Origin: a virus
Taxonomy: Duplodnaviria; Caudoviricetes
Length of the DNA stretch: 64,000 nt
Reading direction: 5' to 3' (one strand)
Virus record (IMG/VR): IMGVR_UViG_3300011701_000001
Location: 1 to 64,000 of that record
Position numbers and translations under genes: made by a program. The notes beneath the pieces were generated by a model. It saw nothing but the letters and a program-made list of their open reading frames with translations. It did no database searches and was not told where the DNA came from. Of this stretch, positions 2,606 through 57,226 are shown in pieces (position 1 is the first letter of the stretch; every line of letters starts with the position of its first letter).

Positions 2606-2682
2606 TGGTGCGCCATGTAGAACTCGAATCTACAACCGTTACCTTAGAGGGGTATTGCTCTGTCCAGTTGAGCTAATGGCGC
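2606..2682 (-). tRNA. tRNA-Arg(UCU) with encoded CCA
   Basis: Cloverleaf read by hand: acceptor GCGCCAT/ATGGCGC, D-arm GCTC-AACTGGACA-GAGC (A20 Arg identity element), anticodon loop CCTCTAA, T-arm GTAGA-TTCGAGT-TCTAC, ACCA end. Confidence 0.93.
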
Positions 2683-6886: not shown

Positions 6887-7807
6887 TTAACCTAACAATT
6901 CAAGCAACTTAACAACATCGTTAGGGTCTAACTTAAAACACTCAGTTTCGCCATCAAAACTAATTAAAGGTTTGTATGAATCTTCGACAAACTCAGTATG
7001 TAAAATCTTCTCAACATCCCAAGAATCTCCTGAATAAGAATACTCCTGTGAATGTAATAACTCAACATTATACATGTTATTCGTGTCTTTTCTAATATCA
7101 TTAGCTCTAGAATGAGGGTTTAGTGATATACCTATCTTATAAAACAATTCAGTGTCATTACTTAGTTTTAATAAATAAACATTTGAACTTCTTTCACCAC
7201 AAACCCTAACATAGTCACTCTTACCATACCCACCAGTAATTAAACCACATTTTTGACATCCGTTTCCATTATGATGATAATACGCAACAACATCAAACCA
7301 ACCGTGCTCAGGACAACCAACAGTAACAATCTCTCTAGCACCTTTAAATACAGTCCTAGAATAATCATATCTATCACCATGTTTCTTCTTAACGTTTTCA
7401 ATATACTGTTCAGTTGTTAGTACTGGTTTCCTCTTTTCTTCATTACAGCATTCAATACAACTCATACCATTATTCATCAACCAGTTAGGTTTTGTTTTAA
7501 TATCACCATGAATTTTACAGGTTACAGTCGTATATTCCAACGCTTTAACATAATTAAATTTTGAAAAATCACAACGATCATCAATGTCTTGAAATTTTTC
7601 TCTTAACTTAAATAAGAAATAGTTGTTTTTATCTAATGCTGACTTCATACCCAAACCAGTAGTACCTCTACCCATCATATCCCTAAGTAGTTTATGAGCA
7701 AAACCATTCTGGTCTTCCACATATAAGTACCTACCAACCTCTTTAATTAATCTTACATTATAATTCTCACACATTTCAACAGCATGATACTTTCTAATAT
7801 TTGCCAC
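6887..7807 (-). CDS. Putative homing endonuclease: DUF723-like Zn repeats plus C-terminal GIY-YIG-like (T5orf172-type) domain
   Basis: CKIHG...CIEC and CPEHG...CQKC repeats; VYLLKL...YKIGIS...R...E...G.TECF. Confidence 0.7.
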   Translation of the reverse strand: MANIRKYHAVEMCENYNVRLIKEVGRYLYVEDQNGFAHKLLRDMMGRGTTGLGMKSALDKNNYFLFKLREKFQDIDDRCDFSKFNYVKALEYTTVTCKIHGDIKTKPNWLMNNGMSCIECCNEEKRKPVLTTEQYIENVKKKHGDRYDYSRTVFKGAREIVTVGCPEHGWFDVVAYYHHNGNGCQKCGLITGGYGKSDYVRVCGERSSNVYLLKLSNDTELFYKIGISLNPHSRANDIRKDTNNMYNVELLHSQEYSYSGDSWDVEKILHTEFVEDSYKPLISFDGETECFKLDPNDVVKLLELLG

Positions 7808-12067: not shown

Positions 12068-12729
12068 TATTTACTCACCTTAATATAAAAACCACACAGG
12101 TAATGTGGAATCTTCTCTTTATCAAAATTAAAAAGTTTAGCTACTCGTTCACTCACATACTCGACACGAATAGTATCACCATAACTCTTTTCTTCTTTAA
12201 CAATAAACATTACTATCTCCAATCAACTAAAGAAAACCTTGCAACCACATTTCTTACAACAAACGAAGTAGTGTCTACGCCACTTATCCTTACCTTTCTT
12301 TATTTTAGGTATATCGAAATTCAAGCATCTATAGCAAAGTTTTTTTACTCTTATCGAATTTATCATACAACATAAAACACCTATTTAATTTAATATTTAA
12401 TTAATTATGCACTATTTCAATAAACAAATCAACTGTTTTAAAAATACACTTAAACTCTTGATATTAAAGGTTGTTACAATTTACTACAATAAAACACTTG
12501 GATTTACATCTTGACAAGAGTATAGTGAATTTTTCTTTGGTCACTTTCTTTTAGACGATAATAGTCATAATCCTTAATGGGCATTCTGATAAGAATGCAA
12601 CGAATAACTGATAAGTTATTTGGATACTAAAGAATAACTCTATAAGATTAAACTTTAAGTAACAGAAATAGCAGTAATAGATTATATAAATAATAAAATA
12701 TTAAATACTACTGTTACTACCTCTAACTT

Positions 12730-44184: not shown

Positions 44185-45702
44185 TTATCCTATAAGGGCT
44201 AAGTTAAGTTTTTTATACTCTTTAGTTGTTGCTAAGACGTTGAAAGAATCAGATGTTCCGTCACACTGATCGTCATGATAGCGTCTACTTACACCATCAA
44301 ATCTTTCTAACTCTGTAAAGTAGTCATCGTTCCAATCACCTTTAACAACTGAAACAATACCGTTTTCACAAGCTGCTGAGAAAGGTAGGAAGCGTACAAG
44401 TTTTCCACTCTTAGTGTTAGGTTTCATAAACTTGACAGGTAGACCAGCATTCGCAAACTCTTTAGCTCGTTGATGCTTGATACTTTTACCAGCTTCACCG
44501 GGATCGGTTGGAAGGTATGTCATTACACTACCAAACTGTTTGTTATCTTGCTTTGAGATTTTTATAATCTCATCAACAACTTCACCTTCACGTTTTCTAA
44601 ATCTGACAACATCTTCGACAATAAATCTTCCATCTTTTGTCTTAGCTATTAACACCCCTGCTGTGTAATCGGGGTCTGGATAAGCTTCTGATGGTATAGA
44701 ACATGCCATATCCCAACAACGAACTCGTCTAACTACTTTTGATAGGTAAGACATATCTTCGGGAATATGCGGATTTAACTGTGTAACCCAAGATTTCTTA
44801 AAGTAACCACTCTCTTCTTCAGAAGCATACCAGTTACCTTTTAATAATCGTTCCATCGTAACACGAGGTTGTGATGCTAATTGAGCAACATAGTCTGGAT
44901 TCTTCTTAATCGCTTCTGGGTTATCGAAACAATTAGCTCCAATAAATACAAAAGATTTAGGCTTACAGAGGTTTTCACCAGTGATAGGATTTGTTCCGAA
45001 CTTCGTGTGATATTTATCATACAGTTCTTCGAATGAATTACCCCATTTAAGGTCATTACCTACACGTAAGTAGTATCGAACAACACCGTTCACATCTTCG
45101 TTAGGTCTACCTTCTACAAGCTCATCATCAATGTATGTTCCTTCTGGATGGATGTAGAAATCATTAATCCACTTAAGAATATACGAAGACGGGTCAGGGT
45201 TACATGTTAACCAAATACAAGGTTTCATTTTTGCATTAGTACGAAGACGAGAAACAATCCACCAAATATCTTCTTCGATAAAGTGTGTTGCTTCGTCACA
45301 CATTGCTGCTGAAATCTCAATACCTTGAATAGCATCTCGACCAGCTTTATCATCCATACCTAAGAATGAAACAGATGCTCCACTAGGGAATCGAATCACC
45401 ATAGGTTGTTGTGTGTATGTTGTACCTTTTCTGAATGCTTGGAAAATCTTAACAGCAGTCCAGAATGCACCACCTTCTTTCTTCAAGTCAGTTGCATGTA
45501 AACGAAACACATAACCTACAAAGTCTGGATCATCACACCATTTTAAGAATTTTAATAGTCCAGTGTAACTCTTCCCACTCATCGCTGCTCCACCATATAC
45601 AGTGAAGAAAGCATCAGTATTTAAGAAGAGTGCTTGCTTATAACTTGTAGCACCAAATTTGGGTTTCTCAACAACCTGTTTTCTTTGTTGTGTTCTTGCC
45701 AA
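44185..45702 (-). CDS. terL: Terminase large subunit
   Basis: Walker A GGAAMSGKS, Walker B AAMCDE, TCNP coupling motif, nuclease WDMA...DYTA...HDDQCD. Confidence 0.95.
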   Translation of the reverse strand: MARTQQRKQVVEKPKFGATSYKQALFLNTDAFFTVYGGAAMSGKSYTGLLKFLKWCDDPDFVGYVFRLHATDLKKEGGAFWTAVKIFQAFRKGTTYTQQPMVIRFPSGASVSFLGMDDKAGRDAIQGIEISAAMCDEATHFIEEDIWWIVSRLRTNAKMKPCIWLTCNPDPSSYILKWINDFYIHPEGTYIDDELVEGRPNEDVNGVVRYYLRVGNDLKWGNSFEELYDKYHTKFGTNPITGENLCKPKSFVFIGANCFDNPEAIKKNPDYVAQLASQPRVTMERLLKGNWYASEEESGYFKKSWVTQLNPHIPEDMSYLSKVVRRVRCWDMACSIPSEAYPDPDYTAGVLIAKTKDGRFIVEDVVRFRKREGEVVDEIIKISKQDNKQFGSVMTYLPTDPGEAGKSIKHQRAKEFANAGLPVKFMKPNTKSGKLVRFLPFSAACENGIVSVVKGDWNDDYFTELERFDGVSRRYHDDQCDGTSDSFNVLATTKEYKKLNLALIG

Positions 45703-46941: not shown

Positions 46942-47103
46942 AACACTTATCCTCTTTACGTAAACATGATAGTCTACAGGAAAGTGTTTAATTCGTAAAC
47001 TATCAATAGAATGACTGAAGTCTTCAAGACCTCCCCTGTCACCAATCGTATCCATTCTTTTAAATGTTTATCCTACATTTAGATTAAAAAATTGGTTTTT
47101 AAA

Positions 47104-47754
47104 TCATAAGGATTTAACATAATGACCATATAGCAGTCTATATGAATCTAAACGAGACAGGTTTGACAGGTTTTTAATATAGTCTGGATAACTATCTAAA
47201 ATCTCTATATTGTCTTCACATGTACCGTGAATAACCTGAACACCATCATAAATACAACCATTCTTTTCTTTGTCGAACTCATAATAATCTTCGTGTTCTA
47301 CTAAATAAGGTTTAACAAGGTTAAAGATGAAACCTCTGTCCTTTGTAGAGTTTGTATTCATGATAAGTTGTTTATTACTTCTTTTGGAGAAAAATTCTAA
47401 TGTGTAAGCTTCATCAACTTGACTTGCATTATCTACGAATGTGTAATCAAACTTTCTACCAACAAGTTCTTCTGGTGTTAAAAAAGATAACGTGGCACCA
47501 TTCTTCATAATAAGAAATAACTCTGGTTTATTCTCATAATGAATTTCTTTCGATAGAATTTCTTTAGAGGTGGTAAACACTCCACCATATGTTTTTAGGT
47601 CTGGTTTGTTTCTCATGACTACAGCACAAGAATTACCTTCTAATAAATATTTTTTTAACTTGAGCAGTCCTGTATAAGAACCACCTTTTCCTGCACCACC
47701 TGTATAGATGACAACAGAAGCTCCACTGTTTAAAAACAGTTGAATACTCTTCAT
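47104..47754 (-). CDS. Truncated TerL ATPase-domain paralog with degenerate catalytic motifs
   Basis: Co-linear with TerL residues ~20-290; Walker A K>G, Walker B DE>DN; no nuclease domain. Confidence 0.8.
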   Translation of the reverse strand: MKSIQLFLNSGASVVIYTGGAGKGGSYTGLLKLKKYLLEGNSCAVVMRNKPDLKTYGGVFTTSKEILSKEIHYENKPELFLIMKNGATLSFLTPEELVGRKFDYTFVDNASQVDEAYTLEFFSKRSNKQLIMNTNSTKDRGFIFNLVKPYLVEHEDYYEFDKEKNGCIYDGVQVIHGTCEDNIEILDSYPDYIKNLSNLSRLDSYRLLYGHYVKSL

Positions 47755-47790
47755 TTTAAATATCCTTAATAGGAAGTTAATATTTTGTTG

Positions 47791-48045
47791 TTAATATAAC
47801 GTACTCTTAAACACCAACATGTCCAAAACCTCTTTAGAGAAACCTACGTGTCTCTCAACCTCTATTCCTTGAGATTCTAAACAGATTGTTGGAACATTCT
47901 TGACTTTGTTGTTCTTCCCTTCTTCTGGGGATTCATCAACATCGACAATTAAATATTTCATGTAAGGGTAATACTTATCAAGATACTTAATTGTTTGAGC
48001 ACAAGGAGAACACCAATGAGAAACATATATCTTCATTTCAAACAT
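47791..48045 (-). CDS. Thioredoxin/glutaredoxin-like protein
   Basis: WCSPC active site and VPT cis-Pro motif; start MFEMK after an AAGGA RBS. Confidence 0.85.
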   Translation of the reverse strand: MFEMKIYVSHWCSPCAQTIKYLDKYYPYMKYLIVDVDESPEEGKNNKVKNVPTICLESQGIEVERHVGFSKEVLDMLVFKSTLY

Positions 48046-48069
48046 TGTATTGTCCTTGCATTTAGAATA

Positions 48070-48765
48070 AAAACACAACACTCACAACACAGGAGAATCG
48101 TACACTGAGTTACCTTTATAATCATTATGTAAGGCTTATTTTATTCGATGTGTGTACTATGTGTGAGGTTGCTAGGAGTAATCGTAAATAAATTTACTCA
48201 AAGTAATCGTTGTCAGTCTTTCCTGACAGTCATCTTACCTATTGCAAATCCAATCACGTTATGGAAGGATAGGTTGTGTTACCTTTCGATAAGACATTTA
48301 AAAGCATTCTGTTCCGAAGAACAACACCTCCGTCAGTACGTGACAACCGATAGATGTTTTTCACACATTACCTAAATTACAACACGTTGCAACTAAGATT
48401 AGTAATGTATTTTTCAATCCGCATTTAAAGTGGCGGAACACTCACAATCCAAGCAGAGAATCAATTCTTGTGCAAGGTTGCTAATGACCTAAGATACCAA
48501 ACTAACCGCGCTTGGGGTTAACCTTTATGTACTTCTACAAAAGCTCTTAGGTGCTACTGAGTCATGCCTAAACGGCTAAAATGTTGTCAGTTATTAAGGA
48601 CTCTGACAAACCTGATGGTAACTGCTACTTACCCTGTGTTATTCCACTCTTATCGTGATGCCACACAGTTCGGCTGACACAGGCTCAATTTATGTTTAAA
48701 CTCAGCTTGAGCTAATTAGCGGAGTACCCGATTCAGAACGTCAATTTGATAAGCCCTGAATCTTG
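48070..48765 (-). ncRNA. Putative large structured non-coding RNA / leader
   Basis: No credible ORF; many hairpins including C(UUCG)G and GAAA tetraloops on the minus strand; duplicated stem modules. Confidence 0.55.
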
Positions 48766-48768
48766 TTC

Positions 48769-48867
48769 TTAAAACAAGAAAATGTAGTAAGGGTAAATAG
48801 AGTAAAATAATACTGAGATAATTAAAAACCAGACAATTACTTTCTCCCAAGTTGTTAATGCTCTCAT
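48769..48867 (-). CDS. 32-aa hydrophobic peptide MRALTTWEKVIVWFLIISVLFYSIYPYYIFLF
   Basis: Manual ORF with a weak GAG RBS; single TM helix. Confidence 0.5.
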   Translation of the reverse strand: MRALTTWEKVIVWFLIISVLFYSIYPYYIFLF

Positions 48868-49056
48868 GTTATCTCAATATAATTTAATATTTTATTAAAT
48901 AAGGAATCCCTGCTTACCAATTACGTGAAGGATTCCGAAACTTTGAATTAAATGCCACTTCACGTAGTAGCCACGTTATCCCATGTGGAAGTTAATCTCA
49001 TGACAGGGAGTAATTGTTTATCTATTGCGACAGTGTTTGTCGTCTTGATAAAGTGA

Positions 49057-49085
49057 ATCATACAGAAGTTGAATGTCTATGTCAA
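49057..49085 (-). promoter_or_regulatory. Sigma70-type promoter driving the leader and morphogenesis operon
   Basis: TTGACA-17 bp-TATGAT. Confidence 0.8.
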
Positions 49086-49163
49086 TACCTTTACGTAAAA
49101 ACAATAAAAGTATTTTTTCAATAGGTTTTAACAATAATATTTAATTATTTATTAAATATTATA

Positions 49164-50431
49164 CTATTCCAATAACCACCTTTCTTTTGTAATTAAATCA
49201 ACACTAATCATATCTTTAACACATGATAGCACCAATAAATCTTCATCTTTATGTTGTACACCCATTAGAGAATCTTCTAAAACCATAAAGTTAAACTCTA
49301 CAGTGTAATCAACTTCCAATTGCAACACCTTATCTAAGTTGTATTTATCAATCAAAGCAATACTCCTGTAAATAAAAACTTAAGACGTTGCCAGAAAGTT
49401 AAAGTGTTAATCTTATTAATTGTCTCTTGGGTTGTATTGAAACTGTCAGTTAGTGCTTCAACCTCAGCCAGCAAATCATTTTTATACTTAACAAGTGTCT
49501 CGTTTGTCTTTAAAGCTCCATTAAGACGCTCTTCTTGTAAACGACACAACTCTTTATAATCATTCAAAGCCTTTAACTCTAAACCAAACACTTCTCTAAC
49601 ATCTTCTGTCATAGCAATGTAATACTCTTGTTTGTCGCCTCTACGATAGAATACACGATGTTCTACGGGGATTTGTTGTACTGTAATAAATTCTTTTGTT
49701 GGGCTATCACCACCTAGATTATATACAGGAACAGAATCGCATCTTCGTTCATAGAAATCTATATGATCTTGAGCAACTACTCGCTTCTCTTTAACGACTG
49801 TGTACAACGTAACTTCTTTCACTGACTGTCTCCTAAATTATCAACATACTCTTGCAACGTACCTTTAGTGTACTCATGAGTAATCAGTAAATTACCATCA
49901 CTATTACCACAAAACAACACACCATCTTTCCAGAAATAAGATTTAAAATTATCACCATCTTGCTCTACATGAAACAAGTAGTAATCACCTTTAACTAATT
50001 CTGATACATCCTTAGTCATAAATTCATCATCAATTATTTCATTGATATTTTCATCAAATAAAGCATTCATTCTACAACTCCTTCATTCAATAATAACACA
50101 CATACCATCATACCAAGCCTCTTTTATCTCGTGTATATCGTTCGCATAATCACAATCATAAGTGTAAACTTCAACATCTCCATGTTTTACTTTATATTCC
50201 TCAAGAAGCTCTACTAATTCACTAATCTTCATATCAGCACCCCTACTTAGTATATTCCATATATGTTTGCACTAAACAAAACACAAAGAATATAGCATAC
50301 ACAATACCAATAATAATAGCTGATGTTAAATCTACACTAACAACATTGTTCTTTAGCAATATAAACAGAACAAATCCTGTTAAAAGTAGTAGCACATCAA
50401 CAAACAAATAAAAATATAAAAACATTAACAT
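49164..50431 (-). other. Five small hypothetical genes (49164-49355, 49352-49822, 49819-50070, 50083-50232, 50243-50431 membrane protein)
   Basis: Coupled ORFs with RBSs. Confidence 0.6.
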
Positions 50432-57065: not shown

Positions 57066-57226
57066 TGGTTATGGTTTAGGTAAAGAAGGTTGGGATGGTA
57101 AACAATCTGAAGGGTATGGTCTAGGTTAACTAATGTGCGAAGCGTAGTGCATTAACAATGGATTGATGTTAAACATGGAAGTTTACTTATAAGTAGTTTA
57201 ATTTAATATTTTATTTAATTGGAGAT

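Follow-up and report, generated by a model that had tools for sequence, protein, structure and literature searches.

A structured RNA of an apparently undescribed family in the tRNA-gene island of an Acinetobacter phage group

What does a phage keep in a gap of about 1 kb that holds no long gene and lies ahead of its late genes? The question is raised by the window analyzed here, the first 64 kb (64,000 nt) of a 97.8-kb phage genome with terminal repeats (IMG/VR record IMGVR_UViG_3300011701_000001). According to the open reading frame (ORF) map, the gap is bounded by the start of a thioredoxin-like gene at position 48045 and the end of a gene of 63 amino acids (aa) at 49164, and the longest ORF in sense (minus) direction between 48046 and 49056 has at most 44 aa. 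An earlier note on this sequence had proposed one functional structured RNA spanning the whole gap. From our comparison with related loci, a single block of it, at positions 48204–48365, is identified as a real structured RNA on the minus strand, called the core RNA in the following. The remainder of the gap is a mosaic of separate blocks.

Homologous loci were collected in several ways. BLAST against phage records gave four matches only, all to Acinetobacter phages (Ab3-TPeters, MD-2021a in two records, and BS46). Further relatives were retrieved from IMG/VR via the endolysin, and the core RNA was found via the best-conserved non-coding block, followed by exact-pattern scans. In a plain MAFFT alignment of eight sequences, 90.4% of the cells of a hand-drawn structure were paired and 11 pairs had changed on both sides. 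The covariation score was 0.204, compared to 0.081±0.017 for shuffled alignments (none of 500 reached it) and at most 0.083 for slid controls. An alignment of 21 distinct members fitted to the covariance model R1 showed 15 pairs changed on both sides in 55 cells, five covarying helices and a score of 0.270 (shuffled 0.099±0.010, 0 of 500; slid controls at most 0.063). Because this second alignment was fitted to the model, the MAFFT result is the cleaner control. RNAalifold independently recovered helices P1, P4, P5 and P6, and the window copy scored 138 bits against R1 (E = 1.8e-36). The covariation, for which the earlier note had suggested a test in related Acinetobacter phages, exceeds both shuffled and slid controls.

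The strand is given by the pairs themselves. Many are U-G or G-U pairs, which would be A-C mismatches on the other strand, and the RNA is therefore assigned to the minus strand. These strand-specific pairs, together with the covariation, support the functional minus-strand RNA that the note had postulated. Two of its hairpins, with a UUCG loop at 48311–48322 and a GAAA loop at 48279–48292, are located exactly there and show compensatory changes in relatives: the stem of the former reads GUUC/GAAC or GCC/GGC, and the latter retains a GNRA loop (GAAA, GUGA or GAGA) on covarying stems that differ completely. A reported pair of UGUCAG/CUGACA hairpins is also present, with compensatory support for the one at 48211–48228. 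For the other, at 48585–48608, as for a CCUGUGU/ACACAGG stem and the bulged-U stems of the "shell" modules described below, the homologs are too few or too similar for a pairing test.

Folding energy did not discriminate among the modules, with z scores from −0.02 to −2.5 and an unremarkable −0.95 for the single-sequence fold of the core, so that covariation carries the case. Coding on either strand of the core was rejected. Indels of 1, 15, 17 and 18 nt and stops in all sense frames leave no conserved ORF, and the longest antisense ORFs of the two phage lineages that possess the element read its invariant block in different frames. Conservation could also act on the DNA, as a homing-endonuclease target, a recombination hot spot or a packaging site, the hairpins then being incidental. 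HNH endonuclease genes do adjoin the element in BS46 and at the loci L012 and L028, terminase genes lie downstream in the window, and the blocks of the gap recombine at short repeats. Yet compensatory changes maintain the pairing in five helices, and the G-U pairs, like the GNRA and UUCG loops, make sense on a single strand, which makes this explanation very improbable.

The fold comprises six helices, P1 to P6 (Table 1). A conserved UAAG-N-UGAC linker connects P4/P5 to P6, and the loops of P1 and P5 are complementary to each other over 6 nt. In the myovirus lineage, the core is extended at its 5′ side by a further hairpin, P0, with a conserved 10-nt loop of the type ACUUUAA over fully exchanged stems (CCGC/GCGG in the window, CCGC/GUGG in the relative L008, CCAC/GUGG in L017 and GGUAG/CUACC in MD-2021a). 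Between P0 and P1, the window, L008 and Ab3-TPeters have a further hairpin, which BS46 and L017 lack and which is replaced by another sequence in MD-2021a.

Searches with Rfam 15 yielded no match in the window at the gathering score and only chance-level miRNA and snRNA matches at E ≤ 10; across five homologous loci, nothing matched the core at E ≤ 0.1. We found no description of the family in the literature, a comparison that excludes the bulk tables of candidate RNAs from IMG/VR, of which Fremin et al. 2023 reported 8,495 (PMC10690425). The core thus apparently belongs to a well-supported, undescribed family of phage RNAs absent from Rfam, in line with the earlier note, which had recognized no known family.

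We identified 22 homologs of the core RNA in two phage lineages; the copy of BS46 occupies positions 7378–7525 of MN276049.1. Besides the relatives of the window phage, the pattern scans placed it in IMG/VR contigs of a second lineage (complete genome of ~82 kb) and in 14 metagenome contigs. The anchor pattern had no copy in 185,579 prokaryote genomes; the core RNA is restricted to phages. No second copy exists in the window or elsewhere in the 97.8-kb genome. In the second lineage, the N-terminus of the tail fibre matches Acinetobacter phages almost exclusively and a phage of A. johnsonii shares 90.8% identity in the adjacent DNA, hence these are Acinetobacter phages as well. Judged by its absence from the close relative L007, whose genome is 96% complete, the core RNA is an accessory element.

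An independent pattern for the 3′ domain recovered the loci L011, L013, L017 and L040, with loops nearly unchanged. It also found three divergent loci, L039, L041 and L042, in which only the domain of P5, linker and P6 is recognizable, located after tRNA-derived remnants and followed by a U-tract (U6 after P6). Since these loci share the 3′ domain alone, it is a reusable module in its own right that can act as a terminator-like end. A tract of four to six U follows P6 in the second lineage and in these distant relatives; in the window, no U-tract of an intrinsic terminator follows P6 (after 48211). At L042:10636–10770 (minus strand), and likewise in L039 and L041, the domain (a small hairpin, the UAAG-N-UGAC linker and the GAAAGA-loop hairpin with its U-tract) is preceded by an orphan T arm, a hint that tRNA-derived cassettes form a wider superfamily. 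In the second lineage, the core RNA is always followed by a gene for a Zn-ribbon protein (CxxC...CxxC) of 73–86 aa, at L012:1405–1656 and 15 further loci, that matched no Pfam family.

To what kind of locus does the core RNA belong? The syntenic gap of BS46 contains annotated genes for tRNA-Tyr and tRNA-Leu, in the order promoter, tRNA-Tyr, tRNA-Leu, core RNA. In Ab3-TPeters, ARAGORN predicted tRNAs for Asn, Pro and Ser in the corresponding gap. L007 carries a tRNA-Thr gene exactly between the two blocks that flank positions 48947–48901 of the window, six tRNAs lie at the locus in L009, and in L008 the Rfam tRNA-Sec model gives 27 bits for a tRNA-like element with a long arm. Neither ARAGORN nor Rfam detected a tRNA between 47700 and 49400 of the window. 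The 47 nt at 48901–48947 align loosely with the 5′ two-thirds of the tRNA-Thr of L007 and a tRNA-Ile of L009 and are probably a tRNA relic, although the likeness is weak.

The consensus promoter TTGACA-17-TATGAT (49057–49085, minus strand) that the earlier note had placed at the head of the gap is present and is the best local site, while the number of promoter-like sites in positions 47000–50000 does not exceed that in shuffled sequences. L008 has TTGACG-17-TATAGT, with both hexamers and the spacing kept and a diverged spacer sequence, and an equivalent TTGACA-18-TATAGT site precedes the tRNA genes of BS46. A function of the window site as a promoter is predicted from these comparisons. Because the relatives have syntenic tRNAs and the promoter is kept in BS46 and L008, the gap is the tRNA-gene island of this Acinetobacter phage group, with its own conserved sigma-70-type promoter at the head and deprived of its canonical tRNAs in the window.

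Further tRNA-related sequences were noticed along the way. At L012:1296–1368 (plus strand), 85 nt after the structured RNA, Rfam detected a tRNA (45.7 bits) that ARAGORN missed. The anticodon loop, CACUAA, is apparently no longer than 6 nt and includes CUA, so this may be a decaying tRNA or an unusual one of suppressor type. Approximately at L007:3263–3420 and L008:2413–2570 lies an element of ~150 nt with a 7-bp acceptor-like stem, a perfect T arm and a greatly expanded interior, which neither ARAGORN nor Rfam called and which does not occur in the window. The only canonical tRNA of the window, Arg-UCU at 2606–2682 (minus strand), is situated far from the island between two protein genes.

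Self-cleaving ribozymes are known from phage tRNA regions. The core RNA, which adjoins tRNA or tRNA-like genes, might be such a ribozyme or serve as a dedicated processing signal, dividing the island transcript into units. Its many invariant unpaired nucleotides compared to variable helices, and the possible pseudoknot-like contact between two loops, are typical of ribozymes. But no known ribozyme family matched even at permissive E-values, the succession of hairpins is unlike the known small self-cleavers and no cleavage site could be inferred; we consider a ribozyme improbable.

From the BLAST block maps and the alignment, the gap as a whole is seen to be a mosaic of modular blocks that recombine between related Acinetobacter phages: blocks are present or absent, duplicated or permuted independently of each other. 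Next to the predicted transcription start lies block A, which is 99% identical in L008 (102 nt) and 98.6% identical in L007 (73 nt); in the latter, tRNA-Thr comes immediately after it. Its fold has a z score of −1.34, and the copies show no sequence variation, hence no covariation signal is possible. The AT-rich 23-nt motif matches three times in the window (12382–12404, 48876–48898 and 57195–57217, all on the minus strand) compared to 0.01 expected, and once more at positions 71876–71902 of the genome. In L007 and L008 it is kept behind the tRNA or tRNA-like gene, and it is possibly a phage-specific promoter or linker.

The gap is not wholly non-coding. An ORF for a hydrophobic peptide of 32 aa recurs with unchanged length and stop codon in three relatives, L007, L008 and Ab3-TPeters (CDS0058 in the annotation of the last). 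This conservation and a concentration of the differences in third codon positions make it a very probable gene; the amino acid changes are conservative. The peptide had no PHROG match. The earlier note was correct in that the gap has no long sense ORF, but overlooked this conserved short one. Over and after its stop codon lie two hairpins that hardly vary among four genomes, the changes being confined to the loop of the second and the place beside its closing pair; they are not a typical terminator, as no U-tract follows them.

The next block, with the CCUGUGU/ACACAGG stem, has a counterpart only in L008 (93.9% identity), and the stretch 48625–48770 folds with z = −2.52. Within this block begins a deletion of L007, in which the hairpins after the peptide gene are joined directly to shell copy 2 and 48188–48720 is wholly missing. 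A UACUCC motif stands at 48721–48726 and again directly upstream of shell copy 2, at the other end of the deletion. In module D (z = −0.02), one hairpin stays paired through a C-G to U-A change in BS46, and a related piece is displaced to another place in L008. L008 also has extra cassettes, including a second, divergent core copy in tandem that reaches only 22 bits.

The two shell copies reported by the earlier note at 48437–48483 and 48077–48174 exist. The module has TAGCAACCT on its 5′ and GTGAGTG on its 3′ side, and the insert that these enclose differs in length among genomes. Ab3-TPeters has the 5′ half of copy 1 replaced. Copy 2 is 96.7–97.4% identical in L007 and L008 and closed by a helix of 16 bp (z = −1.83); it may serve as a terminator. 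The repeats reported in the note are therefore present, but they do not look like repeated functional domains: shell and UACUCC motifs mark block boundaries, and we infer that the duplicated shells are cassette shells or recombination junctions, with too few divergent copies for a pairing test. A UAGCA(ACCU) motif, also said to recur, is not clearly enriched (24 matches with one mismatch compared to 14.2±3.7 expected).

These blocks bear directly on the proposal of one large ornate non-coding RNA (ncRNA) of ~1 kb, of the GOLLD or ROOL type and with duplicated internal domains. GOLLD and ROOL are likewise structured phage-borne ncRNAs, often near tRNAs; the shell motifs are repeated, and the whole region folds somewhat better than shuffled sequences (z = −3.09). 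The antisense strand folds nearly as well (z = −2.36; 20 shuffles each), so that the dense pairing seen by the earlier note is only weakly above chance. No Rfam model matched, which argues against GOLLD, ROOL or another listed family, and the supported unit has 160–240 nt compared to 500–800 nt in those RNAs. Given also that the blocks occur independently and in different order in relatives, at a tRNA-island locus with a peptide ORF inside, a single RNA of this size is hardly credible.

Table 1 Features of the gap between the 63-aa gene and the thioredoxin-like gene, and of the core RNA within it.
Feature	Position	Strand	Basis or remarks
Sigma-70-type promoter of the RNA island, TTGACA-17-TATGAT	49057–49085	−	Predicted; 11 of 12 positions; best site in 47000–50000
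5′ leader block A, starting approximately at the predicted transcription start	48948–49049	−	Kept in L008 and L007
Probable 3′-truncated tRNA relic, 47 nt	48901–48947	−	In the place of the L007 tRNA-Thr; loose alignment
AT-rich 23-nt repeated motif	48876–48898	−	Further copies in the genome
ORF for a hydrophobic membrane peptide, 32 aa	48769–48867	−	Kept in three relatives
Two near-invariant hairpins over and after the peptide stop codon	48731–48778	−	Four genomes
CCUGUGU/ACACAGG stem block	48610–48730	−	Block only in L008
Module D, small hairpin cassette	48490–48580	−	Common to MD-2021a and BS46; support weak
Shell module copy 1, short insert	48437–48483	−	In L008 and MD-2021a; fold z = −1.19
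P0 hairpin, 5′ extension in the myovirus lineage	48418–48437	−	Alignment read by eye
Optional variable hairpin between P0 and P1	48366–48410	−	Alignment of relatives
Core structured RNA, ~160 nt, six helices	48204–48365	−	Covariance model R1
P1	48327–48356, loop 48338–48345	−	11-bp hairpin with fixed A-C mismatch and nearly invariant 8-nt loop
P2, optional UUCG hairpin	48311–48322	−	Covarying
Conserved single-stranded CUUUUAAA	48297–48304	−	Between P2 and P3
P3, GNRA-capped hairpin with central pyrimidine mismatch	48275–48296	−	Covarying
P4, encloses P5	48269–48274 paired with 48237–48242	−	
P5	48249–48265, loop 48253–48261	−	Invariant 9-nt loop
P6	48211–48228	−	Hairpin with invariant GAAAGA loop
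Shell module copy 2, long insert, then U-run	48065–48174	−	Just upstream of the thioredoxin-like gene
Thioredoxin-like gene, 84 aa, first downstream gene	47791–48045	−	PHROG matches and ORF map

Downstream of the thioredoxin-like gene follow, on the minus strand, genes for a 216-aa paralog of the TerL N-terminus, the endolysin, TerL and the portal protein (PHROG, ORF map). The region therefore lies ahead of the lysis, packaging and morphogenesis genes, as the earlier note had stated. TerL is a classical large terminase (44185–45702). The 216-aa protein (47104–47754, minus strand), encoded two genes upstream of it, resembles large terminases in their N-terminal ATPase portion only (PHROG 979, E = 3e-16), and homologs occupy the same place in L017.

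This arrangement invites the explanation that the structured RNA is a cis-acting leader: through processive antitermination, attenuation or stabilization of the mRNA, it would control the genes for lysis, packaging and structure that lie downstream. In both lineages, the late genes follow the core in the same orientation. A terminator scan of the minus strand found one weak site only, at 48954–48971 in the 5′ leader, and none between the core and the first downstream gene. Moreover, P1 precedes a short U-rich stretch and was itself flagged as terminator-like in BS46, and P6 precedes U6 in the distant relatives, so that parts of the fold could double as regulated terminators. However, in L007 the leader and the peptide gene, as well as the thioredoxin-like and late genes, are retained without a core, which speaks indirectly against an antiterminator on which the structural operon depends. 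The distance from the core to the next gene varies from ~120 to ~890 nt among relatives, a tRNA can intervene, and the next gene may encode a thioredoxin-like, spanin-like or Zn-ribbon protein, an endolysin or a homing endonuclease. The latter inconsistency also makes a riboswitch unlikely.

The put sites of phage HK022, which the earlier note had invoked, consist of two hairpins of together ~70 nt directly after a promoter. Like them, the core is a structured phage RNA upstream of long operons, and put acts without a dedicated protein. The core differs in having six helices and ~160 nt, in its position ~690 nt downstream of the predicted start, and in being dispensable in L007 and present in two tandem copies in L008. 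The put-like antiterminator is weakened by these differences, and we rate a cis-acting leader of any of these kinds as rather improbable.

One reading fits the observations best, with chances that appear about even: the core would be released from the tRNA-island transcript as a small RNA that acts in trans, comparable to RNAC and RNAD (species 1 and 2) of phage T4, small RNAs from the T4 tRNA region whose role is unknown (PMC3014915, PMC9697503). The likeness lies in small structured RNAs among or beside phage tRNA genes on the same strand, presumably co-transcribed with them and processed. The core RNA occupies such a position, as seen from the order in BS46 and from the tRNA just downstream of it in L012. 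In the window phage, host tRNA and RNA processing enzymes would cut the RNA out of the polycistronic transcript, and the released core would accumulate as a stable small RNA. A kissing contact of 6 bp between the loops of P1 and P5 would probably lock its fold, and the invariant loops could form the surface that binds a host or phage partner. The accessory status of the core and its association with phage tRNAs make host takeover or counter-defense the most likely kind of role, for instance that of a decoy for a tRNA- or RNA-directed host factor. The analogy with T4 is functional and no homology is expected; the T4 RNAs have been shown to be expressed whereas transcription of the core is predicted, the host group is another one, and the tRNAs of the window island are gone.

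Two other systems offer partial parallels. The pRNA of phi29 resembles the core in having two loops with mutual Watson-Crick complementarity, and both belong to phages with an ATPase packaging motor. The core differs in that it had no match to the Rfam pRNA model, occurs in a phage with a classical TerL, is absent from a close relative and has a loop pairing without covariation support. Known pRNAs come from phi29-like phages only. Bacterial and phage Y RNAs (YrlA), partners of Ro60/Rsr, also have a modular build with parts derived from tRNAs and occur among phage tRNA genes, but the core matched none of them in Rfam.

Several observations speak against the small trans-acting RNA as outlined. 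Genes with the Ro60/TROVE (PF05731) or DUF2828 (PF11443) domain are absent from the 97.8-kb genome, and so is the Zn-ribbon gene that accompanies the core in the second lineage. Since the P1 and P5 loops are nearly invariant, covariation lends no support to the kissing contact, and neither the sole loop variant (L040) nor the divergent paralog in L008 shows compensation. The patterns that recovered most family members had these very loops as anchors, hence the invariance of the loops is partly inflated. Finally, the shared orientation of the core and the late genes downstream of it in both lineages fits a role in cis as well.

A bolder reading is considered doubtful. It takes the core as a new class of mobile, trans-acting phage RNA, a cassette swapped among unrelated Acinetobacter phages within their tRNA islands, whose invariant kissing loops would neutralize a host factor, such as a tRNA- or RNA-directed defense nuclease, or which would itself be catalytic.

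Clusters of tRNA genes in phages are usually explained by codon supply and, more recently, by escape from tRNA-cleaving defenses. Here, a tRNA island without its tRNAs keeps a structurally selected non-tRNA RNA that is common to two lineages of Acinetobacter phages. The exchange of modular RNA blocks observed at this locus bears on the annotation of non-coding regions in phages. BS46 and Ab3-TPeters are cultured and genetically tractable, so that the function of an RNA of the T4 RNAC/RNAD type becomes directly testable, in a phage group of therapeutic interest. If the bolder reading were true, the tRNA islands of phages would be general arsenals of functional RNAs rather than loci of codon supply.

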